DNA from: a virus
Taxonomy: Duplodnaviria; Heunggongvirae; Uroviricota; Caudoviricetes
Length of the DNA: 64,000 nucleotides
Reading direction: 5' to 3' (one strand)
IMG/VR virus record: IMGVR_UViG_2579778606_000002
Span: 1 to 64,000 of that record
In this document: one piece after another, positions 1 to 30,290 of the stretch
How the letters are laid out: each line of letters starts with the position of its first letter
Position numbering within the stretch: the stretch's first letter is position 1
The notes under the pieces: generated by a model
Seen by the model: only the letters and a program-made list of their open reading frames with translations
Database searches by the model: none
What the model was told of the DNA's origin: nothing
Position numbers and translations under genes: made by a program

Positions 1-699
1 GTTGCTTATATTTTCAAACATCCGGCCGGGAAATTATTCTGGGCTTTAACGGATGAAAGCAATAAAGAGCAAGCGGACGTTATTCCTGTTTATGCTGCCG
101 CGCCTGCGTCGGTTGTGCCGGATAATGCATCAGAGCCTCTTGCTTATGCTTACAAAGAGCTTACGCCTGAGATTATGCGCAACCATTTAGCTGTATTCGA
201 GCGATATGGAATAGCCCCAAACGATAGCTCTACCACAATTCAGGCACTGCGAATCGCGCTGGATGGCATAGAGCGGAGCGACGCCATGCTTCATGGTGCT
301 GAACCTGTAAGCCAAACTTACAAGTTGCCAATTAATACACCTTGCCAAGATGCGCCAGCCCATATCTGGCTGCAAACAGCTGGAGTATGGCCAGAAGATG
401 GCGAGTTAAGCGAATTAACGTGGTGCAGCCACAATCAGCACCATGATGACACACTATATGTTCGAGCTGACCTTGTGAATGGCAACTATCCGGTAACTCC
501 GGATGGTTGGATAAGCTGTAGTGAGCGAATGCCGGATAATAATCACGACGTACTTTTCTTCGATGTGTGGGGTTATATCAGGATTGGCTGGTTCAGTGCG
601 GACGACTGGTCGTGGTTTACGTCGGATGATGGGTGCTGCATGGAGGTGACCCACTGGATGCCGCTACCAGAACCGCCTCAGGAGGTTAACCGTGGCTAA
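1..699 (+). CDS. DUF551-domain phage protein, 5' partial (reading frame is open from window position 1; first Met at 115)
   Basis: Frame 1 has no stop from nt 1 to 699; C-terminal WISCSERMPD...WMPLPEPP resembles DUF551 domain common in enterobacterial prophages. Confidence 0.55.
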   Translation, partial: VAYIFKHPAGKLFWALTDESNKEQADVIPVYAAAPASVVPDNASEPLAYAYKELTPEIMRNHLAVFERYGIAPNDSSTTIQALRIALDGIERSDAMLHGAEPVSQTYKLPINTPCQDAPAHIWLQTAGVWPEDGELSELTWCSHNQHHDDTLYVRADLVNGNYPVTPDGWISCSERMPDNNHDVLFFDVWGYIRIGWFSADDWSWFTSDDGCCMEVTHWMPLPEPPQEVNRG

Positions 700-5706: not shown

Positions 5707-6369
5707 TCACTCCACAACAAACCAGTCACAGGCCAGCAGGTCGCCAACTGAAGGCACCCACGGAACAACTACACCTTGTGCATTTTTTAAGGCGAAATAA
5801 GCACCATACGGAACGAGGTCGCCGGGAAAATATCCCTTAATGGCTTCCATTCGTGCCGGGTACTGTCCTTCAGGAACCAGCCAGCAGAATTGGTTTTCGC
5901 CGTTCCACCCACGTCGGGCAACTTTCTTGCCATCCTTCAGCCACATCAGCGCGTCAGAAAAGTCGGCTGCTTCAAGGTCGATTTCTTCTTGTAGAGTAGC
6001 GATACCGCCAGCAGAAATAGTTACGTCCCTGGCTGTAATGAATGTCACCCCATTGTGACCTTCAATGCTGAGCGATACCCCATTTTCGGAGGCGTCGTTA
6101 ACCCGGCTATAGCATTTTTCAAATGCTTTCTCTGGCACATAGACCAGATAGCCATTTTCAGCAGTGACGAGATATCCTCCTATTTGCGGTCGGAATTTTT
6201 CCAAGAACACACCATCAACACGAAGCGTCATTCCTTTTGGCTCAACGACTTCGATACTGCCAAAAATGGGCGCATAAGCTTCGCCGACAATAACAATATC
6301 TTTGATTTTCGATGCCCGAATGATGCTGTGGCTTTTGTATTTGGGGAACACCTGAAAAGTGCTGGCCAT
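5707..6369 (-). CDS. two-domain protein with C-terminal DUF2829 (Tad2-like) domain
   Basis: C-terminal ALMWLKDGKKVARRGWNG...VPWVPSVGDLLACDWFVVE fits the DUF2829 signature (A..LK.GKKVAR.GWNG ... PW..S..DLLA.DW.V). Confidence 0.5.
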   Translation of the reverse strand: MASTFQVFPKYKSHSIIRASKIKDIVIVGEAYAPIFGSIEVVEPKGMTLRVDGVFLEKFRPQIGGYLVTAENGYLVYVPEKAFEKCYSRVNDASENGVSLSIEGHNGVTFITARDVTISAGGIATLQEEIDLEAADFSDALMWLKDGKKVARRGWNGENQFCWLVPEGQYPARMEAIKGYFPGDLVPYGAYFALKNAQGVVVPWVPSVGDLLACDWFVVE

Positions 6370-6383
6370 AATCTTTCCTCTAC

Positions 6384-6878
6384 TTAAAACTTTTCGTACT
6401 GAAGCGGTGTACGCTTGATTTCAATGCGGTCTTCCGATGTGCTACCAAAGCCACCAGCACCTCGCTCTGTTTCATCGAGTTCATCAACTTCTACCAGCGA
6501 TACCGGTTCAACACGCTCAAAAATGCCTTGCATGACCGCCATTCCAGGCTTGAGGCAAACACCTTCACCACCAGGATCTGTAATCAGTTTTGCCATGATT
6601 TCACCGCGATAATCGGAGTCGATAATTCCTACGCAGTTAGCCAGGCGCGTATGCTTTTTGCAGCGCAATCCGGAACGAGGATAGAGTTTCAGACACCAGC
6701 CAGGAGGGATCGCCATAGCGAGGCCGGTATGCACCCACCAGCTTGAGGAAATAGCGCCGTTGCTATCGATACCCGGCGTTATTTCAACAGCAACAAAATC
6801 CATCGCCGCCGATCCGGCGGTGGCGTAAACGGGGAGTTTTGCCGCCGGATGAAGGCGTTTCACTTTCACGTTAATCAT
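6384..6878 (-). CDS. dut: dUTP diphosphatase (dUTPase)
   Basis: Conserved dUTPase motifs PRSGL, GIIDSDYRGEI, RGAGGFGST; overall collinear with E. coli Dut. Confidence 0.75.
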   Translation of the reverse strand: MINVKVKRLHPAAKLPVYATAGSAAMDFVAVEITPGIDSNGAISSSWWVHTGLAMAIPPGWCLKLYPRSGLRCKKHTRLANCVGIIDSDYRGEIMAKLITDPGGEGVCLKPGMAVMQGIFERVEPVSLVEVDELDETERGAGGFGSTSEDRIEIKRTPLQYEKF

Positions 6879-7363
6879 TGCTTTTTAGCTCTCCGGGTAA
6901 ATGTATAAATCCGGCGTTTGATATGCGGAGCGGTCGGAACGGAGACGCAGGTATTCTCGATAACACCTTGTTCCTCCAGCGATCGCACAGCGCGCAAGAA
7001 CTGTGATGCATCACCACCGCCAGACAGCCAGAATTTGCGGGCATAGACGCTGCCATTACGGATAATTTCTGCGATCACCCGCGCTTGCGTCTGGCTTTCT
7101 CGATAGCCAAAGAGTTCTCTTGCCTCTCCTTGTGGGATAGCCAACTGATAGCCTTTCCCGCTACGGTGACGGACAAAACCGTGAGCAATGAGGTTCTTCA
7201 GCTCATTTCTGGTGCGGATACACCCGTACTCAGGGAACTGTGTGTTGATATCACCAGGCTTATGCCATTCATCAGGACTATCAGCCAGGAGGGACAGAAG
7301 TTTCCCTGACAGCTCAGGATTAGTGGTTGGATAGCAGTTCAGGGATGGGTAGTAAGTTTTCAT
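6875..7363 (-). CDS. hypothetical protein, 162 aa, basic C-terminus
   Basis: ORF in operon context, 4-nt overlaps with neighbours. Confidence 0.45.
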   Translation of the reverse strand: MKTYYPSLNCYPTTNPELSGKLLSLLADSPDEWHKPGDINTQFPEYGCIRTRNELKNLIAHGFVRHRSGKGYQLAIPQGEARELFGYRESQTQARVIAEIIRNGSVYARKFWLSGGGDASQFLRAVRSLEEQGVIENTCVSVPTAPHIKRRIYTFTRRAKKQ

Positions 7364-7704
7364 TTGCGCCCCCTTGCCGGATAGCGCCCGGCATTTGCAT
7401 CAGGGGCAATGAAGCCGCTGGTGGGGCGAGTGAAAACATGGTTAATTTTCTCGGTCATAGCGCGATAATTTTCCTGATAGTGGGCCAGGAGTTTTTCAGC
7501 AGCAATGACGGTTACTTTCCGGACGTAGCGTTCAGCTTCCTCCAGATTTCGCCAGTTTTTTTCGAGGGTAAACACGGGAACGGCATCAAGTCCGGTCATA
7601 ACACCGAACACCACGACCGCCTGGTCGCGCTTAACGCCCGCAGTGAAGGTTATGGTGTAACCGTCAACAGTGAAGCGTTTTGATTCCGTAATACGATTGT
7701 GCAA
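7360..7704 (-). CDS. hypothetical protein, 114 aa
   Basis: ORF downstream of operator-like motif at 7763..7772. Confidence 0.4.
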   Translation of the reverse strand: MHNRITESKRFTVDGYTITFTAGVKRDQAVVVFGVMTGLDAVPVFTLEKNWRNLEEAERYVRKVTVIAAEKLLAHYQENYRAMTEKINHVFTRPTSGFIAPDANAGRYPARGRK

Positions 7705-7762
7705 AGTACCCTCCGCAATAGGCGAGGGTACTTTACATTAAAATGCACTGTCTAAAAAGATT

Positions 7763-7772
7763 GTTAGAAAAT
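7763..7772 (+). promoter_or_regulatory. operator-like motif TGTTAGAAAA (followed by TTAATTT)
   Basis: Exact copy of dispersed 10-mer; intergenic between dre and 7360..7704. Confidence 0.45.
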
Positions 7773-7776
7773 TAAT

Positions 7777-8805
7777 TTATGAATCCATCAGGCGACTATT
7801 TGCACCAACGGATGCCCCGCTACGGCGCAAATATCGCATAAGTGTTTCGGGCTTTTTCCATGTGCCTTCCTGCATGATCTCGACCATTGACACCTGTTTC
7901 TCAGCCATATCAATTGCCGCACCAACACGCGCACTATGGCCTGTCCACGTCCGGTATCTTCCCTTGTTCGGCGTGGCATCTCGTTTGTTCAGCAACCCCC
8001 AGGCATCGCTGAATATTTTCTCCATTGCAGGTGCAGTAAGGGGCGTTGTCGTGATTCTGGCCTTATTACTGCGGTGTATTGGCGGGAATAGCACCGCGTC
8101 CGGATGTTCTCGAAGTCCGGACACCTCCAGCCAGTCGTTCAGTACGGCGGTAGTGTAACGAGAAAGCACCTTATCAAGTCCGGCGGCGGTCGTGATGGTC
8201 TTCGTGTGTGAAATATGCAGCGTTACAGTGTCACCTCTTTGGTCCAGATCTCCGACACGGATGCGCGAGATTTCTGACATACGCATCAGGGTATTGTATG
8301 CCACGAAGAGAAACGCCCGATTGCGCAGGTCCACCAGCCGCTCGGAACGGGACAGCAACACGTCGAGCAATTTCAGATCATCCCACCGCAACGGTATAGC
8401 CTGGCCTGTTCGCTCGCCTTTTTCCGTTGCCGCTTCGCGCCGGATGCGCCGCATGGCCAGAGACACACTTTTATCGTCCGACAGCGGCGGGAGGCCACAT
8501 TGCGAAAGCAGCATGTTAAGCATGGCATAGTGCTTATCAATGGTGGTCGAAGCCAGATCGGCCTCATGCAACTGGAGAAGATACTCGCGGGCCATTTCCG
8601 GCGTAATCGGGAACCAGGGGCGCTGGCGCGAGTTACACCACCGCGCCCAGGAATGAAACACCAGACGGAGATCACGAAGTGTATTTGGGGCATAAGCTCC
8701 CTGGTCGTTCATGAACTGCATAAAGTTTTTTGCAGCTTCCTGGTATTCGGTGCCAATATCGCGCAGAAAACCACCAGAACCGCCGGAGATAACTAGTTCA
8801 CCCAT
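7777..8805 (-). CDS. dre: Cre-family tyrosine site-specific recombinase (Dre-like)
   Basis: 342 aa; collinear with Cre (…WFP..PE..R.YLL.L....LA..TI..H...LNML...SGLP.PSD...VSL.MRRIR…HSARVGAA.DMA…) and near-identical to what I recall of D6 Dre; cognate rox site 150 bp upstream. Confidence 0.85.
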   Translation of the reverse strand: MGELVISGGSGGFLRDIGTEYQEAAKNFMQFMNDQGAYAPNTLRDLRLVFHSWARWCNSRQRPWFPITPEMAREYLLQLHEADLASTTIDKHYAMLNMLLSQCGLPPLSDDKSVSLAMRRIRREAATEKGERTGQAIPLRWDDLKLLDVLLSRSERLVDLRNRAFLFVAYNTLMRMSEISRIRVGDLDQRGDTVTLHISHTKTITTAAGLDKVLSRYTTAVLNDWLEVSGLREHPDAVLFPPIHRSNKARITTTPLTAPAMEKIFSDAWGLLNKRDATPNKGRYRTWTGHSARVGAAIDMAEKQVSMVEIMQEGTWKKPETLMRYLRRSGASVGANSRLMDS

Positions 8806-8957
8806 GAAACTATTAAACCTCTATATACAGATAACGCTACGTGAAAAATAGAAAACTGACAGGGTAGTTATAAGTTAATTTTCAAAATTCAAGCCTTTGA
8901 TTCGAGGCATGATTTTTCATCCTTGTCAATACTGCCTGTTTACTGGAGATTATAGCC

Positions 8958-8989
8958 TAACTTTAAATAATGCCAATTATTTAAAGTTA
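8958..8989. other. rox: rox-type recombination site: 14-bp inverted arms TAACTTTAAATAAT / ATTATTTAAAGTTA around a GCCA spacer
   Basis: Read directly; identical to the 32-bp rox site I recall for Dre; lox-like architecture upstream of the recombinase gene. Confidence 0.8.
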
Positions 8990-9074
8990 GAAATCGGGAC
9001 TTTTTTCCCAAAAAAACACCGACAAGATCACTTCGCAAATCTGTCAGCCATGCGGTAGCCGTTTCCTGGTTACA

Positions 9075-9084
9075 TTTTCTAATA
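9075..9084 (-). promoter_or_regulatory. operator-like motif variant (TTTTCTAATA on plus strand = TATTAGAAAA on minus)
   Basis: Between rox and gene 9187..10224. Confidence 0.35.
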
Positions 9085-9158
9085 GGAACAATCAAAAAAA
9101 AGCGGTTTTATCCTTTACTCACCTTGTTATTCAGCATAAATTTGTCACAGGACTTTTA

Positions 9159-9168
9159 TGTTAGAAAA
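9159..9168 (+). promoter_or_regulatory. operator-like motif TGTTAGAAAA (followed by CTAAATC), 19 nt upstream of ATG 9187
   Basis: Exact 10-mer copy overlapping the likely promoter/RBS region. Confidence 0.45.
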
Positions 9169-9186
9169 CTAAATCGAGTAGGAATA

Positions 9187-10224
9187 ATGAGTAAGAAGTC
9201 GATCGAGAATGAGTACAAACGGTTCCTGCAAACCGCTGAACGGTGGAAAGAGCTGGTGGTCGCAAACTCTGTTTTCCATGATACCAGTTACGTTGGCGAG
9301 GAATTTCGCCATGTTGCATTAACACATGATCCGGCTGTATTAGAAGAAGCTGAAAAATGCATAGCCGAATGGAAAGCCTTTGTTGATCTGTGTCGCAAGG
9401 ATGATGACAAAGCCTCAAACATTGTTGAGTCGGTTTATTTACCGATCCCATTCATTGTTGAGGATACTAATCAGAGTACGCATATCGTTATGCAAAGCGC
9501 AACCACAACGAGAACATTTACGCGCGAAGACCTGCTGAAAAAATACGATAAAACTATAAAGAAAAGCATGAAAAACAGGATCTTTTCACAGGTTGTCGGT
9601 GCGCTTGAAGAAGAACGCAGATTCTTCGCCGCAGAACGTGAGGGCGAGGTATACCGCGCAAGAAAAGAAGGTTATACCGATGTGGTGATTACCACCAATA
9701 TCGAGGGCAACAATGGACTTTCACGCTTCAGAGTGGGTACGCACGGTGCGCTGATCTTTGCAAAAAAAGCAAACACAGAGATTCCCGTTGTTAACAACGT
9801 TGGTGAGCGCCGCACCCTTACCATTTACACTGGCATTAAACCGCTTCCGTGCGGACTTCTCGGCGAATTTGACCTTTATCGGGTTCGTGACCTGGAAAAG
9901 CAGCAGCCAAGCTATGTCGTGAAGTCATATATCCTGAGAAACATTGATATCCGCAATCAGAGTTTAAAAAACAAATCAGAGAAAATGCTGTCCGAAGCCG
10001 ATCCAGCCATACACCAGATCGTTAGCCGGAAAATTCAAGAAGCTAAAGATGCAATGGCAAGGCTGGATAAAATGGACCTGGAACTACTGGAAGTTATGAT
10101 TGCCTCCGGCGATGACCTGACAGGCATCCGCCTTACTGAAGCCAGGAAAAAATACGGTAAAAGCGTTGAAGAACGCTATGGGTACACATTCACACAAACG
10201 ATGTACGCGGCAAAACTCTGGTAA
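9187..10224 (+). CDS. hypothetical 345-aa protein, AT-rich gene adjacent to rox; possible repressor-position or accessory gene
   Basis: ATG at 9187 with AGGAA upstream (ORF track start 9124 is TTG); lower GC than flanks; flanked upstream by two operator-like motifs. Confidence 0.45.
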   Translation: MSKKSIENEYKRFLQTAERWKELVVANSVFHDTSYVGEEFRHVALTHDPAVLEEAEKCIAEWKAFVDLCRKDDDKASNIVESVYLPIPFIVEDTNQSTHIVMQSATTTRTFTREDLLKKYDKTIKKSMKNRIFSQVVGALEEERRFFAAEREGEVYRARKEGYTDVVITTNIEGNNGLSRFRVGTHGALIFAKKANTEIPVVNNVGERRTLTIYTGIKPLPCGLLGEFDLYRVRDLEKQQPSYVVKSYILRNIDIRNQSLKNKSEKMLSEADPAIHQIVSRKIQEAKDAMARLDKMDLELLEVMIASGDDLTGIRLTEARKKYGKSVEERYGYTFTQTMYAAKLW

Positions 10225-10261
10225 TCGCAAGCCACCCACAAGCCCCGAATCGCCGGGGCTT

Positions 10262-11770
10262 TTAAATGTCAATATCAGGAATATCCACTTCTGCCAACAC
10301 CTGATCGCGGAATGTTGCTAGTTCTGCGCCAATGTCTTCATTAGCAGGCACGTAATCCACCAGCATAGTGAAGCAGTAGGTATCCCATCTGTCCGGCGAC
10401 TTGATGTTTAACTTCTGCCGCATGTGCTCCTTGCGCATCATCGCCACCTTCCCTTCTTCGTTAAGCATATACGGGATTTTTGATGCCTGATCGGCAGTTT
10501 TGGGGTCACTATCGATACGCATACGCCCTGATTTAATGGCATCCCCTGCCATAATATTGGCGTAAGCACGCTGATTGACAAAGCGTTCTCTGTCTCTTAG
10601 CGCAAACATAGGTTTACCCCAACGGATGCGAACGGGATTAGCACCACGGCGGACAAGCTGCGCACACGTATCTGAACCAAAGCCATCAGCATCCACAGCA
10701 ATGGTGATGTTCGGGTATTTATCAGGAGTGCATTCGTTATAGATAAAGTCGGCAAAAGCCAACGGGTCCATAGTGCCTGGCATCTCCAGTATCTTAAAGT
10801 TCACAACACGTCGTTTCTCACGATAACCGGATACTTTGCATATATTGAGCACCGATTTGTCGCGACCATTACCGACGTCAGCGGTCGCTACCCAGCCCCA
10901 ATCTTTCTCCAGCAACACTTTACGCCGTGCGGCGCGGTCGCACTCATCACGACCAAGCAAATACCCGTTAATTGCACGCGGGAACTGGCCCAGCACCTTA
11001 ACCATGTACTCCAGCGAATCCCTGCCGCCGTACTCCAGCAATTTCTCACGAATAAAGCTCGGTTCAACGAATGGAGATTCTTCAGAGTTAAGGACTATTG
11101 CCGTCCAGACTCCTTCCGGATTGCCTTCTGCCTTTGCCCTTGAATGGTGGGATTCATAAAAGTAACCGCTTGGACGCGTAGGCTGGGAAAGCATGAGCAT
11201 ACGGTTATCTTTCTGCGTTAACGCCCCCGTCATGACGTTAATCGCCTTATCTGATATGCCCGATGCTTCATCAAGGATTAGCAGTAAATGCTCCGCGTGC
11301 TCCCCCGCCAGTGCCTCTTCGTTACCGAGTCGATAACCTTTACAGAGCACTTCCCATATCCCTTTACGGGAACGCTCATAAAACATGGTGTCAGACAGGA
11401 CAAAATAGGTCTGTAACCAGCCGTGGCGCTTAACAGCATTCGCCCAAAACTGTTTCACGTATTTGAATACGCCTGTTTTTACCTGGCCTATTTTGTTCGC
11501 AACAATAATGACGCGGGCGTCGGGGAACAGGATCATAAAAATTAGTAGCAACATCGCGGTAAGGGACGACTTACCCGTTCCGTGTCCGGACGTAACGGTC
11601 GTCCTGCTCCCCGTCTCCTGCACTGACTGAATGATCTGCTGCTGCTGGTGGGAGGGGAACATCCCAAAAATATCGACAACCGCCTGGGTAAAGTTGTATC
11701 GATACCTGATAACCATATCGCGCCAACGTGGATCACTGGTGACGCACTTAATCTTACGACCACCAGCCAT
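10262..11770 (-). CDS. pacB: terminase large subunit (PacB-like)
   Basis: 502 aa, Walker A GHGTGKS, nuclease-like C-terminal half; immediately downstream of pacA-like gene as in P1. Confidence 0.75.
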   Translation of the reverse strand: MAGGRKIKCVTSDPRWRDMVIRYRYNFTQAVVDIFGMFPSHQQQQIIQSVQETGSRTTVTSGHGTGKSSLTAMLLLIFMILFPDARVIIVANKIGQVKTGVFKYVKQFWANAVKRHGWLQTYFVLSDTMFYERSRKGIWEVLCKGYRLGNEEALAGEHAEHLLLILDEASGISDKAINVMTGALTQKDNRMLMLSQPTRPSGYFYESHHSRAKAEGNPEGVWTAIVLNSEESPFVEPSFIREKLLEYGGRDSLEYMVKVLGQFPRAINGYLLGRDECDRAARRKVLLEKDWGWVATADVGNGRDKSVLNICKVSGYREKRRVVNFKILEMPGTMDPLAFADFIYNECTPDKYPNITIAVDADGFGSDTCAQLVRRGANPVRIRWGKPMFALRDRERFVNQRAYANIMAGDAIKSGRMRIDSDPKTADQASKIPYMLNEEGKVAMMRKEHMRQKLNIKSPDRWDTYCFTMLVDYVPANEDIGAELATFRDQVLAEVDIPDIDI

Positions 11771-13134
11771 TAGTCATCCTCCGGCTGGTCTATCGCAATC
11801 TCGTCATCTACAGCATCAAAACCGGTATCCCCCGCGTCATAATCACCGTAGATATCAGCCGTGGCGGAAGGGTCTATATTCAGGTCTTCATCATTGGCCT
11901 CAAATTCACCGGCTTTACGTTCTCCGTTCCGGTCGTAATCCCCCATCCCAAGCCTATCAACGATTTTCGCTACTTCAGCCCGGCGTTGTGCAAGCCATTG
12001 TGGGAGTCCAGCTTGTTGCTCGGCAAACTGCTTCGCCTCTTTATCCAGTTGCTCATCATCAACATCGTTAACGTCAGAAACCGGAGGCTCCAGAAGTGAG
12101 ATCGCTTTTGCCGCTCGTGCCGCCAGGATAGCCGGGACACTGACGCCCTGCCGCTCGATATATTCAGCAACGCCTATATCGTCCAGCTCCTCGCGCTCAC
12201 GCATACGTATAGCGGCGGCGATAACTCTGGCGGCGCGTGCGTCAGCGCCAATGCGATACTCAATCTCTTTGCCACGCTGCTCGGCTTGCAGGCGAGTAAT
12301 CGCCAGTTTTTCTCTGGCCTCAGCCTCTCTGAATGCCTGCTGGCGCGCGCCCTGCGCAAGTTTTTCATCCCCCTGGCGTAGCTTCTGCTCGGTCTGGTAG
12401 ATGGCAGCCAACCTACTGATAAAGTCATTCATGTAGTAGGCCGCATCGCTTATTAGGCCGAGAAGACGCTGCCCTGGGTGCATTCCCTCTGGCTGTGTAT
12501 CGCCGAGGGCGTCAATCTCTTCCTGTAGTCGTTCCGCTTCCTGGTCAACGATGGCCTGATACTGAATTGCTCGTTCCTGCGCCATCTGTATCGCAAGTCG
12601 TAAATGTTCAGTCGCGCCGTTCTTCATCATCTCACGGGCGACGTTGGTGGCAGGCAAAGTGGCGCTTTGAGCTGATGAGTCAGGGATCATTTGCAATGAT
12701 CCCTTGTTTCGTTGGGCTTTTTCGCTGCTTTTAGGGATCATTTCCCCCATTTCATCACAAAATGATCCCCTTACATCCTTGTGTATCTTATTGTTATTAC
12801 TTGGCTTTTCTTTGTGATCCGCATTTTGTTTTTGCGGCATGGCGCGGAATCGTCCACCAGCTAACGATTTGTCAGTTTTTGTAAATTCTGTGCTTTTATC
12901 AGCCTTTTTTTGCTCTTTTTTTGGGCTTGTGGCGCTACTTTTTGCGCGCTGTTTTGTACTTTTCCCGGCAGCCTTAGCTTTCGCTTTAACCTCGTTTTTT
13001 TTCATATTGAGATGCTTTCTGGCGGTGTTAAAGCTGAGGTCATGCTGCTCGCAATATTCTTTTATGGTGATCCCGGTTTCTTCTCTTAACTCCAGGAACT
13101 TAGCTCGATGCGCTTCCCAGTTAATTAACGTCAT
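11770..13134 (-). CDS. pacA: terminase small subunit / pac-recognition protein (PacA-like)
   Basis: 454 aa, N-terminal HTH-like region, Lys-rich linker, acidic C-terminus; contains GATC-rich pac-like cluster near 5' end. Confidence 0.6.
   Translation of the reverse strand: MTLINWEAHRAKFLELREETGITIKEYCEQHDLSFNTARKHLNMKKNEVKAKAKAAGKSTKQRAKSSATSPKKEQKKADKSTEFTKTDKSLAGGRFRAMPQKQNADHKEKPSNNNKIHKDVRGSFCDEMGEMIPKSSEKAQRNKGSLQMIPDSSAQSATLPATNVAREMMKNGATEHLRLAIQMAQERAIQYQAIVDQEAERLQEEIDALGDTQPEGMHPGQRLLGLISDAAYYMNDFISRLAAIYQTEQKLRQGDEKLAQGARQQAFREAEAREKLAITRLQAEQRGKEIEYRIGADARAARVIAAAIRMREREELDDIGVAEYIERQGVSVPAILAARAAKAISLLEPPVSDVNDVDDEQLDKEAKQFAEQQAGLPQWLAQRRAEVAKIVDRLGMGDYDRNGERKAGEFEANDEDLNIDPSATADIYGDYDAGDTGFDAVDDEIAIDQPEDD
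12685..12829. other. pac: candidate pac site: five GATC-containing hexamer elements (TGATC[C/A]) within 145 bp inside 5' part of pacA
   Basis: GATC at 12685, 12698, 12736, 12764, 12826 embedded in repeated GGGATCA / TGATCC elements; P1 pac is a Dam-methylated hexamer cluster inside pacA. Confidence 0.45.
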
Positions 13135-13523
13135 AGGGAAGCCTCACGTTTTTTCACAGCGGCGTTCCATAGCTGGTTAGTCATCGCCACCAACTGACGC
13201 TGCTCCTTTCGTAATTGAGCTTCTATCTTTCGGTTGGTGTTTTTCACCAACAGCCGACCGAATTCAGGAGTGCGCCCGCGCACCTTGAACTGGTATCCAT
13301 TCAGGCCATGTAGCCAATATTTCCGGGGGTATACGCGGTCGTCTATTTCGCAAATGGCACGACTGGAACGAACAAAAAAACGTATGATGTTATTTACGTT
13401 TACGCGCGACACATGAAGGTGAGGATATTGTGCTTTTGCACGGCTGGTGATTTCGGTGACCGTCAGATAGCAGTCAGCCCTGATCATGATATCCGCTATT
13501 TCGGCGCTACTGATTTGCTCCAT
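13131..13523 (-). CDS. lpa: possible late promoter activator (Lpa-like), 130 aa
   Basis: Position immediately upstream of pacA as in P1; operator-like motif just upstream; assignment by synteny only. Confidence 0.35.
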   Translation of the reverse strand: MEQISSAEIADIMIRADCYLTVTEITSRAKAQYPHLHVSRVNVNNIIRFFVRSSRAICEIDDRVYPRKYWLHGLNGYQFKVRGRTPEFGRLLVKNTNRKIEAQLRKEQRQLVAMTNQLWNAAVKKREASL

Positions 13524-13610: not shown

Positions 13611-13630
13611 TTAATATTAACTTACTAACA

Positions 13631-14014
13631 CTACCAGCGGGATAAACGAACAACATGCTTAACTTTTGCCTCCCACTTCCCTTTATGTTTGTTGATCACC
13701 GCCTGCGCCATCTTCAGACTGGCTTCAAAATCGGCTTTTCGACCACTATTGCCCACCAGCAACGCTCCGTCTATTTCGGGTAAGCATAAGTAATCCTGCT
13801 CGACGGTAAGCGGCATTGATGATGTAACCTGGCAGGCTTTCCATCTGAAGCGTATGCGCACACTCCTGACTGACATCACGACATAACCTGATATTGTGCT
13901 CTTGTGTCCGGCGTCTGTGCGTGTAGCCTTGCATGATGTTATCTTGCAGGTGATGATGTCCCAACCAATGTGCATCGCATCCTCAATGCGTAATTTAGTA
14001 GCCTCGTACATCAA
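13631..14014 (-). CDS. hypothetical protein, 127 aa
   Basis: ORF in minus-strand operon. Confidence 0.4.
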   Translation of the reverse strand: MMYEATKLRIEDAMHIGWDIITCKITSCKATRTDAGHKSTISGYVVMSVRSVRIRFRWKACQVTSSMPLTVEQDYLCLPEIDGALLVGNSGRKADFEASLKMAQAVINKHKGKWEAKVKHVVRLSRW

Positions 14015-15040: not shown

Positions 15041-15117
15041 TGGTGGCCCCTACCGGACTTGAACCGGTGACCGTGCGATTATGAGTCGCCCGCTCTAACC
15101 ACTGAGCTAAAGGGCCA
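15041..15117 (-). tRNA. tRNA-Ile2-like (anticodon CAU; could be read as Met without lysidine modification)
   Basis: Reverse complement GGCCCTTTAGCTCAGTGGTTAGAGCGGGCGACTCATAATCGCACGGTCACCGGTTCAAGTCCGGTAGGGGCCACCA folds as cloverleaf; anticodon arm GGCGACTCATAATCGC like E. coli ileX. Confidence 0.7.
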
Positions 15118-15544
15118 GATTACTGTTAATTACGCTTACGCTTTTTGCCAGAACCGCGTAAGGCTTTTGCCGCTTGCTCTACCCCGTATGCAACCACCAG
15201 CAGAAACAATAATGTCCACTCCGGGTTTTTATCGGCAAACGCCCAAAAATCCATCACTTGCAGCCACCTTTTAAGACAAACGCCATTGCTGTTAGGTTGC
15301 GGTGCCGGGTGCCTCCCGGTGACGTTAACCAGTTAACAATTAACGCCGGATCACTTATGGATTCTCGTTACGCCAGTAAAAAGACCACCTTTACTGTTTT
15401 AACTGTTCCGCGTGCGCTTAGCCGCATTCACCGCAATGGTAAGAGCATTTGGCTGACTGGGCGGCGATGACGCCTGTACGCATTTGGTGATCCGGTTCTG
15501 CTTCCGGCATTCGCTTAATTAGCCAAATACTCTTAACGTTGCGA

Positions 15545-15631
15545 TGGCGGAGAGTAATGGAATCGAACCATCATCGCTTGGGCGACGGGACGGTTTTCAA
15601 GACCGCTTGAGCACCATGCTCCCTACTCTCC
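15545..15631 (-). tRNA. class II tRNA, probable tRNA-Ser (anticodon UGA); D-arm atypical
   Basis: 7-bp acceptor GGAGAGT/ACTCTCC, discriminator G, CCA, anticodon loop CTTGAAA, long variable arm, T-loop TTCGATT. Confidence 0.45.
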
Positions 15632-15872
15632 AGTGATTGTGGTGGTCGGTGCTGATCTCCGACTGCGCCTCTTTTTTTCATAGCCCATAAGGCCGGTCAG
15701 TGCGCTTGATGACTGAGGCATCGATATTTACTACGCCGCCTCGTTGCCATAGGGCGGACTTGCGCGCCAGCAACGCGCATTCACCACAACGGTAAGGGTA
15801 CTTCGTAGGGATTCGAACCCTCTGCCAAGCACGGCGATCTCCGACGTCGCAAAATACCCTTACCTGTTGTGT

Positions 15873-15948
15873 TGGTGCCGGTTAACGGACTCGAACCGCT
15901 GACATCCTGCTTACAAGGCAGGCGCTCTACCAACTGAGCTAAACCGGC
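15873..15948 (-). tRNA. tRNA-Thr (anticodon UGU)
   Basis: GCCGGTTTAGCTCAGTTGGTAGAGCGCCTGCCTTGTAAGCAGGATGTCAGCGGTTCGAGTCCGTTAACCGGCACCA; canonical cloverleaf. Confidence 0.8.
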
Positions 15949-15952
15949 AATT

Positions 15953-16039
15953 TGGTGGGGAGTGATGGAGTCGAACCATCCGAGTCGCAATGACAGTAGA
16001 TTTACAGTCTACCCCGCTACCCCTACGGACTAACTCCCC
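15953..16039 (-). tRNA. class II tRNA, probable tRNA-Tyr (anticodon GUA)
   Basis: Acceptor GGGGAGT/ACTCCCC, anticodon arm GTAGACTGTAAATCTAC and variable arm similar to E. coli tRNA-Tyr; D-arm imperfect. Confidence 0.55.
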
Positions 16040-16044
16040 TAAAT

Positions 16045-16121
16045 TGGCGATGGTGGGTGGATTCGAACCACCGACCGACAGCTTAGAAGGCTGCTGCTCT
16101 ATCCTACTGAGCTACACCATC
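16045..16121 (-). tRNA. tRNA-Arg (anticodon UCU, reads AGA)
   Basis: GATGGTGTAGCTCAGTAGGATAGAGCAGCAGCCTTCTAAGCTGTCGGTCGGTGGTTCGAATCCACCCACCATCGCCA; canonical cloverleaf. Confidence 0.75.
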
Positions 16122-16606: not shown

Positions 16607-17305
16607 CAAATATCCCACTCGCGGTATTGCCACTTAGGCGTATGGTCAACCTGGCAACTCGGTGTCCTCAACGGGGAAGGAATAACCCCGCCATACTTAC
16701 CGCCGCGCCTGTCGCGGTTATCGCTACGTATCAACATAAAAGCCGACTGCCTGAGCAAGATTCACTTTCAAAGGCCCGCAGAAAGGAATCCATAGTCGGC
16801 TTTTATCTTGAAGCGGCTCTCTCTCCGCCCGTCACCGTCCTATCCCGGTTGTCGCGTTTGCCACGCCAGCCGTAACGAGGTTTAAAGTCTTTTCACGTTT
16901 TCATCACTCGACTGCCGTCTATGGCTGTTCGTTGCAGCGGGGGTGCCTCCCCCTGGGGATATCCCCGGCCTTACCCCCATTCTTTCAAAACACAATGCAA
17001 GGCCACATCCGCATAGGTGCATTACCGCAACGTTAAGGAGACTCAGAGTCAGCAAAATAAGAGGAAAACCCAACTCTGCGCCTCCTTAACGTTGAGGATG
17101 TGCACTGATGATGACCCGATGCAGCCTGGCCCACTTAACATACTCACTGCCAGATCATCATCAATGAACACCTTAAAAAGACCTTCCGTGGCTCAAGTCA
17201 CTGTCGTTTACTCCGTAAAATGCTCTCGCTGAAACCACTTTACGCACTAAACCTGCCGGGCATGTATTTGCACGGTGCCGGAGCTTTCCCTTACCTTAAA
17301 ATTTA

Positions 17306-17316
17306 CTTTCTAACAC
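17306..17316 (-). promoter_or_regulatory. operator-like motif (CTTTCTAACAC on plus strand)
   Basis: Partial copy of dispersed motif in ORF-poor region. Confidence 0.3.
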
Positions 17317-17434
17317 TTAAGTTTGTTTGATGCTGGTGGGGGAAGACAATGAAGTGACTATCAAACCCGCAAGCGACATGGGAAGCTCCCCACCAGCACG
17401 AAAAATTCTATGTTAAGTTAATTCCATAATCAAC

Positions 17435-17464
17435 ATGTTAGAAAGATAATTTTAGTTTTCTAAC
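17435..17464. promoter_or_regulatory. inverted pair of operator-like motifs TGTTAGAAAG-N10-TTTTCTAACA
   Basis: Two half copies in opposite orientation at the 3' end of gene 17468..18676. Confidence 0.4.
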
Positions 17465-17467
17465 ACA

Positions 17468-18676
17468 TTATTTCCCGTAAAGATTTTCAACTCCACCGTT
17501 CTTCTTATCCCACTCGTTCGCCCATACCCGGCAAGCATCAATTATTTCCTGACGTCGATCGCCCTGCATGAACGGAATGCTTTCATGAAAGCTGCTTGGA
17601 ATGCAGGCCACACTGAACACTGTATCAAACTCAGTCTGCTTGATTGCCTCCAACGTCTCTGGACGCATTTTCAATTCGTCGATCGGTGCATCCTTAGAGT
17701 CCATAATCCGGCGATGTAAGCGTGGAAAATCCGTTTCAAGGTACGCCATAATTTTATCTGCCAGACATTCGTCTATGTCGGTATTCCAGTCAGTTTCGAA
17801 GCCAGGAATTCGGTAGTAAAGCGGCGCTCCCCATACTGACGGGATCACATCCATCGTCAGCAGGCGGCTGGTTCTGATTTGCTGATGGTAATTTGCCGTC
17901 AGCAACGCTTCGCCACGTTGCCCAGTCTCCGCGACCAGACCATGCGGAAACTCATGGATATAGGCAATAGCTTCTCTTCCGTCATACATTAGCGGGAATG
18001 TCTCTGGCCTTTGCCCCATGCCACAGGCGCGATTCAGATCATGACCAAGCTCTGAGCACTCTCGTTTCAATGTTTCAATAATGCTCTGCGCCGCTGCTAA
18101 CTTTTTACGCAGTGTGACGAGTTCGCCTTGATACTCAACGCATTGCTGATTTAGCTTGGTTAAACGCTCTTTTAGTTCCCGACGCTCTCTTTTCAGCGTG
18201 CGGTTATCTTTCTCCGCAACATCCAGTCGTTTTGTCAGGCTTGGCGGATAGTCTTTTTTGTAACGACTCAAATCGACTTCAGCAGATTTGCGCAGTGTAT
18301 TTGCCTGCTCAAGACGCGCCTCCAGATTGCCGATCTCATTACGCATATTCGCGGCAAATTGATTAACAGCATCCCCCAGGCTTTCAACTGTCGCTGATAC
18401 ACCAGTGACTTGAGAAAAACGGATCAAGCCATCATTAACGGCTTGCTGATATTCCTCAAACTGATCCACCAGCTTATTGTAATCAACTGCCCCATCATCA
18501 AGGAGCTGGTTGATTTCCGCCACCAGGTTATCTGTAGTGGCAATGACGCTCTCATGCAGTCGCTTTGACAGGTCATCGCCCGGATTTCGTTTCTGTATAA
18601 GCGCGATTTGTGTCCGCAGCGTTTCAATTGCGGTTGAGATGATCTCCAGGCTTGATGATTCTACTTGCTGACTCAT
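17468..18676 (-). CDS. hypothetical protein, N-terminal coiled coil (approx residues 100-220) plus C-terminal globular domain
   Basis: 402-aa ORF with heptad-rich region (…LEARLEQANTLRKSAEVDLSRYKK…LKRERRELKERLTKLNQQ…); own operator-like motif upstream. Confidence 0.55.
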   Translation of the reverse strand: MSQQVESSSLEIISTAIETLRTQIALIQKRNPGDDLSKRLHESVIATTDNLVAEINQLLDDGAVDYNKLVDQFEEYQQAVNDGLIRFSQVTGVSATVESLGDAVNQFAANMRNEIGNLEARLEQANTLRKSAEVDLSRYKKDYPPSLTKRLDVAEKDNRTLKRERRELKERLTKLNQQCVEYQGELVTLRKKLAAAQSIIETLKRECSELGHDLNRACGMGQRPETFPLMYDGREAIAYIHEFPHGLVAETGQRGEALLTANYHQQIRTSRLLTMDVIPSVWGAPLYYRIPGFETDWNTDIDECLADKIMAYLETDFPRLHRRIMDSKDAPIDELKMRPETLEAIKQTEFDTVFSVACIPSSFHESIPFMQGDRRQEIIDACRVWANEWDKKNGGVENLYGK

Positions 18677-18700
18677 GTTTGTTCCCTTTCTTGAAATTAG

Positions 18701-18710
18701 TTTTCTAACA
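18701..18710 (-). promoter_or_regulatory. operator-like motif (TTTTCTAACA on plus strand) about 25 nt upstream of gene 17468..18676
   Basis: Exact 10-mer copy. Confidence 0.45.
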
Positions 18711-18752
18711 TATTTTATTAGTATGCAATTTCAATAAAAAGACTCAGGCAAC

Positions 18753-19941: not shown

Positions 19942-20202
19942 TTAATGGTTTATTTTATCAGGCTCGTTAATTTCCATAACCGCCTTGTCGATAGCAATCA
20001 TCCATCCTTCATAGGATAAATCATCAACAAGTCCCACCAGCTTATCGTCAGTGTGCGGAAAATAAATCCATCCCCATTTCGAAGGGTTTTCTATATGCCG
20101 CAGGGTAAATACCCGCTTATAACGGTGGTATTCAAGGGCGTATCCCTTCCCTTGTGAGTACGCTTTTAAGTCGTCGATCGTAAACCTACGATTCTTCCGC
20201 AT
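19942..20202 (-). CDS. hypothetical protein, 86 aa
   Basis: ORF only. Confidence 0.35.
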   Translation of the reverse strand: MRKNRRFTIDDLKAYSQGKGYALEYHRYKRVFTLRHIENPSKWGWIYFPHTDDKLVGLVDDLSYEGWMIAIDKAVMEINEPDKINH

Positions 20203-20204
20203 GG

Positions 20205-20639
20205 CTACCCCACGATTCGATATTTCTCTATAGACTCGTCGTAACTTGTGTATACGTATGGCTCTGTATCATCAGCATAAGGCGCGACTTCCAGAGCATG
20301 AACGGGATTGTATACCGCGTCATTTTCCAGGCGATCGCTCGAATACAGATGCCCGGCTAAAACCGTAAGCGCCGGGCGACTCATTTTGTAGATTTCTGCC
20401 ACATCACTATCTACAACTTGTCCAAATGATATGTCGCCACGCTCCAGCAATAACGTTTTAAGCGCAGGCCACCACGGCCCATAAAGATGATAAAGCTGTG
20501 GATCTCTTTTCAGCCTTTCCGCCATGCCATCCAGATATGCATCCAGAAACGCCTCTTCACTCCTGCCATTGAGCGCCTGCGGCAAAATGTCCTCAAGGTA
20601 GGATTCCGTCGGTTTTACAGTGTCAATTAATGTCGTCAT
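20205..20639 (-). CDS. hypothetical protein, 144 aa
   Basis: ORF directly downstream of darB-like gene. Confidence 0.4.
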   Translation of the reverse strand: MTTLIDTVKPTESYLEDILPQALNGRSEEAFLDAYLDGMAERLKRDPQLYHLYGPWWPALKTLLLERGDISFGQVVDSDVAEIYKMSRPALTVLAGHLYSSDRLENDAVYNPVHALEVAPYADDTEPYVYTSYDESIEKYRIVG

Positions 20640-20675
20640 TCAAATTCGGCCCCGGTTGGGGCCGCTCCTTATCTG

Positions 20676-23600
20676 TTAGGCCGCATCGGCGATTATTTTA
20701 CGCAGTTCATCTACCGAGTAACGCGTAGATACCATCCATGCAGGACGGTCAAAGTTCACATCAGCAACCGGGTTTGCTTCAAAATTCCAGAAACGCCCGC
20801 CAATCTTCTTAATCGCGTCTTTGGCGTTCCGTATTGTCGAGGAACCAGGTTGGTCGGCAATGAGATAAACCGCACCGACGTCCTCGCTGACACTCCACCA
20901 GCGCCCGCGAACACGCGCCTTAGCGCGAATCGGCTTATCATTAACCACAATGATATAGTCATCATTCGCCGCTTCATCAGCTCTGGCTTCAGCCACTGCC
21001 GCCTGCTCTTCTCTTTTGCTTTCAGCCTGTTCAAGCCTTTCCGCGATCTCTGATTCGGTGGCCCCGCCGTTTTTCAGCGATACATAGTCTTGCCACGTTG
21101 CTGATTTGAGCGCATCCGGCAACTCATTCACATAGTCACCGTCTTTCAACTCACGGGCGCGGCGGGTAGCCATTTCTACCAGGCGATTAACAGAAACAGC
21201 ATCAGCAAAATCGTCCTTACTAATGTGTTTTTCATCAAATGCATTGATGACAGCCCCCACCTTAATCCACTGTGCTGCCGGTGATTCCAGGGGGTTATCA
21301 GCCTTAACAATGGCGAGTTTCGCTCCATCTACCCCATTATTCGCCAGCTGTTCCAATGCCGCCCATCCATCTGCATCACTGAGTGATTTATATTGCTCAA
21401 ACAATGCATCGCGCCAGGCCACCAGCGCAGAACGTGTTTTTTCGATCTTCGCCTTAATTTTCGCGATCTTGACCTGATTAAACATCCGTTCAATATCATC
21501 GATATTGCTAAAGGCTTTCATCCTGCCCTGGAATAAACGGTATGCCAGCACGGTCCTCCAGAATGATTCCAGACCTTCTCCGGACGGTTTGCGGAACAAG
21601 CTAAGAATATCTTCAGAAGTGACTTTATTAAGCGAACGACCTGACAGACCACGCCCAGCCATCCAGTTTTCGAACTCCTGGGCAACATCATCCATCGTTG
21701 CCTGTGCGCCCCATGCCTGCATTCCCTGGGTGTAATCATACCCATACAATGCCTGGAGGAATCCCTCGCCGTCCACGATATTCAGCGGGTTATCACTGGC
21801 TTGTATTTTTGCCACTTCACGCTTCAGCGCCTCGTCGTTGCCATCAGGATATATCCATCGCTCAGGTGCTATATCCGATGCTCGCCCGATTTTTTGGCCT
21901 ATCACGCCATCATAGGCCGATGACAGCGCGATCTGACCATCATCTGTGCGATATGCCCAGTATTTAATAGCTGACCCACCGCCCCATGCATTACCAGGTT
22001 TACCAGCAATAACATTCATTACCCCATTGCGAATAGCATCATAGAACTGATCGCGAGTAAGTATTGTTGATAGCTGGTGGCACTGAACACCACGCGCAGC
22101 CGTTGCGCGCGATTCAGCTACCCCCTCTTCAAAAGTTACCGCCTCAATCACAGAGTCAAACGGCAATGTAACGATTGACCCCGGTGCTCGAGCGTAACGA
22201 CTTGCTCTATCCAGCCAGGCGATACGGCAGAGGTATTGTGCTTTTTCACCGTCAATTTTTTCCACCCGGACAATCGCTGTTGTTTCGCGATCATCAATGA
22301 CTGCACGGTAATAACTACCTTTATGCAACAGGATATTCTTGTCAGTGCGCATATATTCCTGTGGGTTCTGAATAACATCGATACTGATATCCAGCACACC
22401 AGACTTAATAGCGCGCTCCACATCACCACGAGAGCGTTTCATTATGGTATCCGCGTCTTTTGCCCTGGTGATCGCAAACCGCAGCACCCGCGCACGTTTT
22501 CTGTAGCTACTCAACTGCTCAAGCGCGTATTTTTGCCCATTCCTGTTCGTACCCGCTTTTATCAGGTCGTCAAGATTGCGCTGGTAATACTCTATCTGTT
22601 CCATCGCGCTTTTCAGTTCTGTCTCCATCATGCCGATATCTTTTCCGGCGGCGTTTGCCGCTTTCAGGTAGATATCGAGAGCATTGTTGGCCTCGCGCTG
22701 TGCTTTCAGTTTCAGACGTTCTTCACGCTCTTGCGCCTGGCGAGCCATGATTGCGCGGCGTTCTTCCGGGTTTGCCGCCAGCATAATGGCGCGTTCATCA
22801 GCATCATCCGCATCACCATTGGCGATCTCTGACATGTCGGATGTCATCACCATCTTGATCCAGTCTTTCTTACGTTTCAGCGTATCCAGACGGAAGTCGT
22901 CGAATGTGCCTTTGCCACAATAGTAGTGAACATTGACCTTTTCTTGCGGTGAACCTACGCGCGCACCGCGCCCATTTCGTTGGTCGATACTGGCTGGTGT
23001 CCAGGGTAGTGTCAGGTGGTGGATATCGGTTGTCCCGATGTGCAGGTTAATACCTACTTCAGCCTTCTTGTTACAGATTATGATGCGCGTGCGACCTTCG
23101 TTATAGTCGGCGGCAATACCTTCCATGCCCTCAAGGCCAGCATCATTTTTAGCGGAGAGATAATCCTCATATTGGGCAAGTTTGCTGTAGTAGGTTTCCC
23201 ATGCCCCTTCTTTGTATTCACCGTTTTTGTTTGGAGTAGGTTCGGTCGGCTTATTCACCTTCTTCAGCTTGATGCCACCAGCCTGGCTAACTGTCGTCGC
23301 ATTGATAATGCCAATCTCCTGCTCCGGCATTTGCAGTGCACTGGCGATAATACGGCGCAGCTTCTGGTGCTGGGCTTTTTCATCAATAAAGACGATCTGC
23401 TTACCGTTCTTCAGACCTTCACGAAGATTTTCGATCAGCGCGGCATACTTCGGCGGGATGGGGTGCGATACCTGCTGCATATCAATGCCGGCAGCCGCAA
23501 TGGCCTTCAGTATTTCAGCTTCCAGTTCAATGCTGGCACGTATTTCAACATGCGTCGGATGTTCACTAAAAGCGGTCTTCACTACCTTGCTGGTACGCGT

Positions 23601-29960: not shown

Positions 29961-30019
29961 AGTTACGGCCTCACTAACAGGTTTAACAACCTGCTACCCG
30001 CTGCTAAACAGGTGGCAGG

Positions 30020-30110
30020 ACGTGACGGGGTTAGCAGACTGGCGTTAGTGAAACCAGCAGGCCGAAGCCTCCCCATCACGCCCCACCATAATTTGGGCGT
30101 AACGCGGTTT
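30020..30110 (-). ncRNA. c4: candidate C4-like antisense RNA (contains a'/b' elements CACTAAC … CTGCTAAC complementary to two flanking target pairs)
   Basis: Minus-strand RNA would carry CACTAAC and CTGCTAAC (30030..30050) complementary to GTTAGTG / GTTTAGCAG copies at 30156..30183 and 29972..30013 (the latter just upstream of icd RBS); boundaries approximate. Confidence 0.4.
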
Positions 30111-30290
30111 TACGGACACAAAAATACCGCAATATCGGATATCTGCGGTTGTCCGCACTAACATTCAGGCTGCTAAACCCGGTCGCAGAATTTGCTACGA
30201 CGGCATGAATATAAGCCTGAACATTAGAAAGATCAACAGAATTTTTATCAGATGCTGTTTTTTAGTGACGATATAAATCATACATTCTTG

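Follow-up and report, generated by a model that had tools for sequence, protein, structure and literature searches.

A probable D6-type C1 repressor gene in a plasmid prophage, with dispersed predicted operators and a predicted Tus-like core

The C1 protein of phage P1 has been studied since the 1980s, and to our knowledge neither a structure nor a recognizable DNA-binding motif has been reported for it. It is reported to bind as a monomer, and DNA looping takes part in the autoregulation of P1 c1. Experiments have established P1 C1 as a repressor (PMC8546580). Its binding sites are 22 asymmetric operators of 17 bp (ATTGCTCTAATAAATTT) dispersed over the genome; it controls repL, lpa, and its own gene among others, and is modulated by c4 RNA, Ant, Coi, and Lxc (PMC8546580). 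The gene of phage D6 is labeled 'c1, phage repressor protein, similar to the C1 repressor of phage P1' in AY753669 and 'prophage repressor' in MF356679. Here we describe a gene at positions 9187-10224 (+) of a 64,000-nucleotide stretch of caudoviral DNA (positions 1 to 64,000 of IMG/VR record IMGVR_UViG_2579778606_000002; the window), where the list of open reading frames (ORFs) contains an ATG-started frame of 345 aa. We assign a probability of about 0.85 to its being c1, encoding the C1-type master repressor by which a D6-like (P1-related) plasmid prophage holds down its lytic functions, because it is orthologous to D6 c1, lies at the c1 locus, and encodes a homologue of P1 C1, and because a dispersed motif has the statistics and positions expected of its operator. 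The gene is already annotated in close relatives and so is known rather than new; what is added here is an operator consensus with a site map, a two-part architecture of the protein, and a connection to Tus.

The region is ~80% identical to phage D6 at the nucleotide level, and the D6 protein (AAV84948.1 / ASR76322.1), also of 345 aa, is 80% identical over 345/345 residues without a gap. The profile phrog_1678, labeled as of unknown function in PHROGs, was matched over its full length at E 1e-158, and by these alignments the gene is a member of the D6 C1 orthologue group that this profile represents. The two elements have the same neighbors (dre-rox-c1-pacB-pacA-lpa), are identical in rox, the proximal operator, the ribosome-binding site (RBS), and the first residues of the protein, and carry the motif at orthologous sites; the window gene differs in being a separate allele with 20% amino acid divergence. 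A tblastn search against phages (E 1e-3) gave D6 as its only match. In seven Escherichia plasmid records the region is 98.8-99.0% identical at the nucleotide level and the protein at least 99% identical, and the plasmid alleles as a whole fall into three classes (7 records at ≥99%, 96 at ~80%, and 26 at 66-68%), of which the class of the window is the rarest. The plasmids that bear c1 are all non-mobilizable, measure ~80-95 kb, and are D6-like phage-plasmids; c1 is syntenic in ~150 of these, and the labels given to it by the Prokaryotic Genome Annotation Pipeline are mixed, either 'phage repressor protein' or 'hypothetical protein'. Even the 68% allele of Escherichia fergusonii keeps the proximal operator intact (7919-7935 of the compared stretch), so the three classes of alleles may not correspond to distinct immunity types; the operator is likewise the same as in D6, from which homoimmunity between this element and D6 is predicted.

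The relation to P1 C1 is more distant. BLASTP aligned the two proteins at 21% identity over 241 aa (E 1e-7), collinearly from residue 7/8 to residue 237/242, and the NCBIfam model NF041318 (phage_rep_C1) was matched at E 1.7e-5, residues 9-244 on positions 10-249 of 283. A family profile built from ten D6-type proteins and searched against 1.8 billion cluster representatives recovered 87 relatives, mostly of 250-290 aa and matching only positions ~5-245, among them P0079 (E 9.4e-7), a protein with 53% identity to P1 C1; a homologue search with a broad alignment added few sequences (13 proteins), and a precomputed Pfam assignment, PF27008, stands on all the relatives, long and short. The sequence homology to P1 C1 across the core is weak but significant, contrary to the first-pass annotation of this DNA, which saw no resemblance between the two proteins, and the alignments place the common core of the family at ~245 residues. 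P1-type proteins end shortly past this core, with a short basic tail in P1 C1 itself (283 aa), whereas D6-type proteins (344-380 aa) carry ~100 extra residues, predicted to be helical and conserved within the type (for example SGDDLTG...AR..YG..IEE..G.TF). Pfam-A assigned no family to the window protein, giving just a sub-threshold coiled-coil match and neither an HTH_3-type domain nor an S24/LexA-like peptidase domain, and searches with Pfam-A, with PADLOC, and against PDB sequences returned nothing of use for either this protein or P1 C1.

The locus agrees with that of P1 as well, in line with the earlier proposal that the gene lies beside rox and where P1 carries c1. Its features are as follows.

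7777-8805 (-): gene for a Dre-like tyrosine recombinase, 94% aa identity to D6 Dre; Pfam Phage_integrase
8958-8989 (strand not assigned): rox recombination site TAACTTTAAATAATGCCAATTATTTAAAGTTA, 32 bp, identical to the annotated D6 rox
9069-9086 (-): predicted operator O2, weak, inverted relative to O1, with the core TTAGAAAA at 9075-9082
9114-9170 (+): conserved block with two candidate c1 promoters, proposed from the sequence and its near-invariance
9157-9173 (+; matrix site 9155-9175): predicted operator O1, TATGTTAGAAAACTAAA, in c1 orientation, ending 13 nt 5' of the ATG; 26.3 bits
9180-9183 (+): Shine-Dalgarno sequence AGGA, 3 nt 5' of the ATG, read from the sequence and invariant in five D6-like leaders
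9187-10224 (+): c1, probable D6-type C1 prophage repressor, 345 aa (ORF, D6/P1 homology, profiles, substitution rates, AlphaFold2 model)
9187-9921 (+): c1 part 1, residues 1 to ~245, C1/Tus-like core as predicted
9922-10221 (+): c1 part 2, residues ~246-345, D6-type C-terminal extension, predicted helical
10240-10261 (strand not assigned): GC-rich hairpin between the convergent c1 and pacB, likely a terminator (minimum free energy -14.9 kcal/mol, z -2.5)
10262-11770 (-): pacB, terminase large subunit, convergent with c1
10262-13134 (-): pacB and pacA together
13131-13523 (-): lpa

The order in the window is dre(-), rox, c1(+), pacB(-), pacA(-), lpa(-), and that in the P1 annotation is lpa, pacA, pacB, c1(-), coi, imcB, imcA, lox, cre. 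The gene thus lies at the position of P1 immC, between pacB and a lox-type site with its recombinase and convergent with pacB, and it faces the same way as in P1 with respect to pacB and the recombination site. An alternative TTG start at 9124 was rejected, as the RBS and O1 would fall inside the ORF and the homologues begin with MSKK. The two operator-like motifs reported earlier in the ~200-bp leader are O1 and the weaker O2. Both lie upstream of the gene, which is therefore not flanked by them as had been stated; downstream there is just the terminator-like hairpin, whose T-run is only 4 long, so that it was not listed by the terminator scan.

O1 is identical in the D6, Salmonella, Shigella, and E. 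fergusonii elements. In an alignment of five D6-like leaders, the leader is near-invariant from ATCCTTTACTCAC to the ATG, with O1 inside this block, and the 8-bp core of O2 is the only invariant island in the divergent middle part; O2 has a counterpart in D6 at 112-125 (-). Two candidate promoters for c1 can be read in the conserved block. The first, TTTACT (9114-9119)-17-TAAATT (9137-9142), would put O1 just past the transcription start, and the second, TTGTCA (9142-9147)-17-AAAACT (9165-9170), would have its -10 element covered by O1.

The motif was seeded from this leader as an asymmetric element of 14-17 bp and then extended to a weight matrix that was run on the window. TGTTAGAAAAYTAA has 12 copies at ≤2 mismatches against 1.21 expected, a count reached by 0/100 shuffles, and in the weight-matrix scan nine sites exceeded 20 bits and two more scored lower, the whole set falling between 7.7 and 31.5 kb. 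Besides those at c1, the predicted operators and the features related to them are the following.

7760-7776 (+; matrix 7758): operator copy directly 3' of the dre stop, upstream of orf2-orf3-dut; 27.5 bits
13597-13617 (+) and 13614-13634 (-): inverted operator pair upstream of lpa; 26.2 and 17.4 bits
17299-17319 (-): operator copy upstream of the tRNA cluster; 21.1 bits
17432-17452 (+) and 17449-17469 (-): abutting inverted operator pair just past the stop of the pmgS-like gene, upstream of the tRNA cluster; 25.9 and 30.2 bits
18694-18714 (-): operator copy ending 19 nt 5' of the ATG (18676) of the pmgS-like gene (17468-18676, -); 32.1 bits
29029-29736 (-): Rha/Roi-type anti-repressor gene, from the D6 annotation
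30008-30093 (-): C4 antisense RNA, Rfam RF01695, 70 bits
30162-30214 (-): c4-a1b1 target element, Rfam RF03163
30303-30323 (-): operator copy upstream of c4-a1b1, the C4 RNA, icd, and the anti-repressor gene; 29.9 bits
31508-31528 (+): operator copy upstream of repL (30377-31339, -); 26.8 bits

Dispersed asymmetric sites of ~17 bp, some of them in inverted pairs, are thus found before c1, lpa, repL, and the c4-icd-ant unit, as in P1, where the counterpart Olpa is annotated upstream of lpa. The motif copies are kept at orthologous positions in D6 and in the 68%-identity E. fergusonii allele; the copy at the pmgS-like gene, for one, is identical in D6 at 10315-10335. Judged by its predicted sites, the element has the layout of the P1 C1 regulon but another operator specificity. 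Both operators have a TTAGA core when that of P1 is read on its other strand (AAATTTATTAGAGCAAT), whereas the sequences otherwise differ, and the P1 consensus has zero matches in the window at ≤3 mismatches. An operator specificity unlike that of P1 predicts heteroimmunity between the element and P1. Repressors of the lambda CI type (HTH_3 with S24) have the same life-cycle role in the maintenance of lysogeny and in autoregulation; they differ in an unrelated fold and in sites that are symmetric and clustered at one switch, unlike the asymmetric, dispersed sites of the window. These positions also support the suggestion in the first-pass annotation that the protein is the repressor that recognizes the dispersed motif, as do the D6 orthology, the P1 homology, and the locus. 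The gene call confirms the element as a D6-like plasmid prophage with an immunity C region in the style of P1, and the operator motif together with this first map of the putative regulon can aid the annotation of the ~150 related plasmids, in which the gene is often a 'hypothetical protein'.

Several minor observations were made on the motif-bearing regions. The operator copies at 17432-17469 and 17299-17319 lie upstream of tRNA genes, so the tRNA cluster may be under C1 control. The window has five tRNA genes (Met, Ser-tga, Thr, Tyr, and Arg-tct) at 15041-16121 (-); those of D6 (6084-7850) are Met, Ser, Thr, and Asn, placed on the - strand by ARAGORN and on the + strand, without the tRNA-Met, in GenBank. 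The C4 RNA, a1b1 element, icd, and anti-repressor gene with their operator copy (30008-30214 and downstream) resemble the immI module of P1. O1 and the copy at 18694-18714, which are among the strongest, are oriented with their genes and sit within the 5' leader, not on top of a recognizable promoter. The sequence AGTTAGAAAACTAC at 25251-25264 (-), a match with 2 mismatches, is located inside the darB-like gene (20676-27527) and is identical in D6 (16858-16871); its conservation may be due to coding only.

Some findings count against the assignment as a C1 repressor. The repressor function is drawn from homology and genomic context. The NF041318 score is 24.5 bits, and the equivalog cut-off is 500, which places the window protein, as judged by the profile, in a distant subfamily and not among the equivalogs of P1 C1. 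Two of the P1 partner genes, coi and lxc, were not found: between rox and c1 there is no coi-like ORF of ≥40 aa on the + strand, save for the TTG extension of c1, the ~200-bp leader has no space for coi, imcA, or imcB, and Lxc has been reported absent from D6-like elements (PMC6799933), although the window, covering only ~64 of ~92 kb, allowed no exhaustive search for lxc. With no coi-like ORF in the leader and Lxc reported absent, the circuit differs from that of P1. A scan with the sigma-70 consensus found no c1 promoter, neither of the two candidates included, and we therefore infer the geometry of autoregulation. Covariation between protein and operator is not demonstrable, as alleles down to 66% identity share the operator, and no operator was found in a 30%-identity Pantoea relative by leader-seeded search and k-mer counting.

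We also noted, in 41 kb of the Pantoea agglomerans plasmid pPA-MXU-90 around its c1 homologue (19992-21074), that Chi (GCTGGTGG) is strongly over-represented; the top k-mer there is the 9-mer GCCACCAGC, with 25 occurrences when its complement is counted in.

The structure of the protein was predicted with AlphaFold2. Model 1, built from ten sequences, had a mean predicted local distance difference test score (pLDDT) of 81.6 and a predicted template modeling score (pTM) of 0.50; model 2, from 85 family members, reached a pLDDT of 94.4 and a pTM of 0.80, with all five models above 93. The predicted core is of the α+β type, with very long strands (99-112 and 155-171) and long helices alongside, and the residues that are near-invariant in the family (R41, W62, P88, R159, and G187) are located in or beside the long strands. 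The C-terminal part is predicted as a helix hairpin (233-270 / 273-307) followed by three short helices. When model 1 was compared with the PDB by Foldseek, four Tus entries were matched at E 2e-8 to 9e-7 with a probability of 1.00 over ~300 columns; the next non-Tus match had an E of 0.17, which leaves Tus as the only significant structural match. The Tus-like fold is well supported for a prediction, and the DNA-binding domain that the first-pass annotation suggested looking for by structure prediction has a candidate in a predicted fold of a sequence-specific type that binds asymmetric sites.

From these observations we propose how the C1 repressor may work. The core of ~245 N-terminal residues, α+β and Tus-like, would bind asymmetric sites without a helix-turn-helix, and in the lysogen C1 would keep lpa, repL, and the c4-icd-anti-repressor operon off, together with several further units. 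It would limit its own synthesis through O1, located between or over the promoter and the RBS, and O2, ~80 bp upstream of O1, may assist, for instance by looping as in P1. The helical C-terminal extension probably serves protein-protein contacts, either self-association at paired operators or docking of the anti-repressor, and more speculatively it may replace the Coi and Lxc partners of P1.

One variant keeps the C1 role but has the protein act as a dimer or oligomer, joined through the C-terminal helical hairpin, with the paired or inverted sites, or looped O1-O2, as the functional operators in place of single sites bound by monomers. It would account for the pair of antiparallel ~35-residue helices with a small helical module, a part that is invariant at many positions in D6-type and absent from P1-type proteins, and for the inverted or neighboring sites at three loci (13597/13614, 17432/17449, and O1/O2). 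However, several of the strong sites are single (7760, 18696, 30305, and 31510), and P1 has 'bivalent' operators though its C1 has no such extension, and we regard the variant as possible but rather unlikely.

We know of no reported relatives of Tus outside its own family, and among the papers searched we found none that mentions both a C1 repressor and Tus. At the level of sequence the signal for a link is faint but agrees in direction with the structural match. The Pfam family Ter (PF05472), searched against 85 relatives of the window protein, matched 2 of them (best E 0.012) and was the only Pfam family to match more than one member, and it did not match the window protein itself. An hhalign comparison with a Tus alignment gave a probability of 11.6% and an E of 0.0026, with C1 60-196 on Tus 122-268, and HMMER in both directions gave 5-7 bits in the same register; the Tus homologues returned were all >80% identical, so that the Tus profile is shallow and the profile-profile test a weak one. 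The sites can be compared as well. TerB of E. coli K-12, AATAAGTATGTTGTAACTAAAGT (1227-1249 of the compared stretch), ends 12 nt 5' of the tus ATG on the coding strand, and O1 and TerB share TATGTT and AACTAAA around a spacer of 4 nt in O1 and 2 nt in TerB. In random AT-rich 21-mers the pattern ATGTT-N(0-6)-AACTAA occurs on either strand at ~2e-4, and the relaxed pattern TGTT...AAYTAA at ~1.5-3e-3. Tus (PF05472; PDB 1ECR, 4XR0) and the predicted C1 are thus alike in asymmetric sites of ~15-23 bp and in a site copy that ends 12-13 nt before their own start codon on the same strand; Tus differs in showing no significant sequence similarity, in having no C-terminal extension, and in its role, a polar fork barrier as opposed to a prophage repressor.

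On the strength of the predicted model, homology between C1 and Tus is plausible and unproven. The broader proposal, that the C1 repressors of P1/D6-type phage-plasmids and Tus share fold and origin as one protein-plus-site module, is a tentative one, to which we give slightly less than even odds. TerB is also the site through which Tus represses tus (PMC8707476), and tus is thought to have been domesticated from a 'plasmid gene', phages being unmentioned (PMC6549158). If the proposal were true, the module of a DNA-binding protein with an oriented, asymmetric site 12-13 nt 5' of its start codon would be ancestral, and tus/TerB would be a domesticated descendant or a sibling of a phage-plasmid immunity repressor and its operator. 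This would give the plasmid gene behind tus a concrete source (PMC6549158), would account for the reading of asymmetric operators by a C1 that lacks a helix-turn-helix, and would open the origin of the enterobacterial fork trap to experimental test.

The same resemblance could be read to mean that this C1/Tus-fold protein acts mainly by stopping replication forks or helicases on the plasmid in a polar way at its oriented sites, as Tus does at Ter, and that another protein is the immunity repressor. The structural match to Tus alone, the likeness of O1 to TerB in sequence and in its place before the gene, and the asymmetry and orientation of the sites would all be in keeping with such a role. 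Against it, the homologous P1 C1 is an established repressor (PMC8546580), the sites lie in promoter or leader regions of the expected regulon and not around a replication terminus, and the Ter core GNRNGTTGTAAYKA does not occur in the window at ≤1 mismatch, so we consider a fork block very improbable. For want of a canonical Ter core in the window, the candidate view of the operators as genuine Ter sites for the host Tus was likewise rejected.

The gene had also been described as AT-rich, with lower GC than its neighbors. The second part of this holds, as c1 has 45.5% GC, below dre (54.4%) and pacB (50.0%). The first does not carry over to the gene as a whole: compared with the rest of the element, c1 is 2.5 points under the window mean (48.0%) and differs from it by less than 1 standard deviation (sd); among 1038-bp windows it ranks at the 20th percentile, which is not anomalous (repL has 45.9%), and only the 381-bp intergenic leader, at 33.6%, is truly AT-rich. 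Between c1 and its D6 orthologue the nonsynonymous and synonymous divergences are dN 0.125 and dS 1.16 (dN/dS 0.108), and c1 is under purifying selection. The dS values of pacB (1.21) and pacA (1.25) are equal to that of c1, which has therefore diverged in step with the backbone and gives no sign of recent acquisition. Low GC as a mark of horizontal acquisition was rejected, the GC being within 1 sd and dS matching the backbone. To an acquired accessory or defense gene at the c1 locus, controlled by a repressor encoded elsewhere, as the first-pass annotation had offered in the alternative, we give almost no credence: the GC under that of both immediate neighbors, the lack of a Pfam-A match, the 'unknown function' of phrog_1678, and the operator copies in the c1 leader would suit it, but the protein is homologous to P1 C1, holds the same place in ~150 D6-like plasmids, has a backbone-like dS and a normal GC, and found no family among the PADLOC-DB defense models at E up to 1.

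On the far side of rox from c1, the Dre-like recombinase gene has a potential promoter of its own. A near-consensus sigma-70 promoter, TTGGCA-16-TATAAT (11/12), is located inside rox at 8949-8976 (-) and is directed at the dre-like gene.

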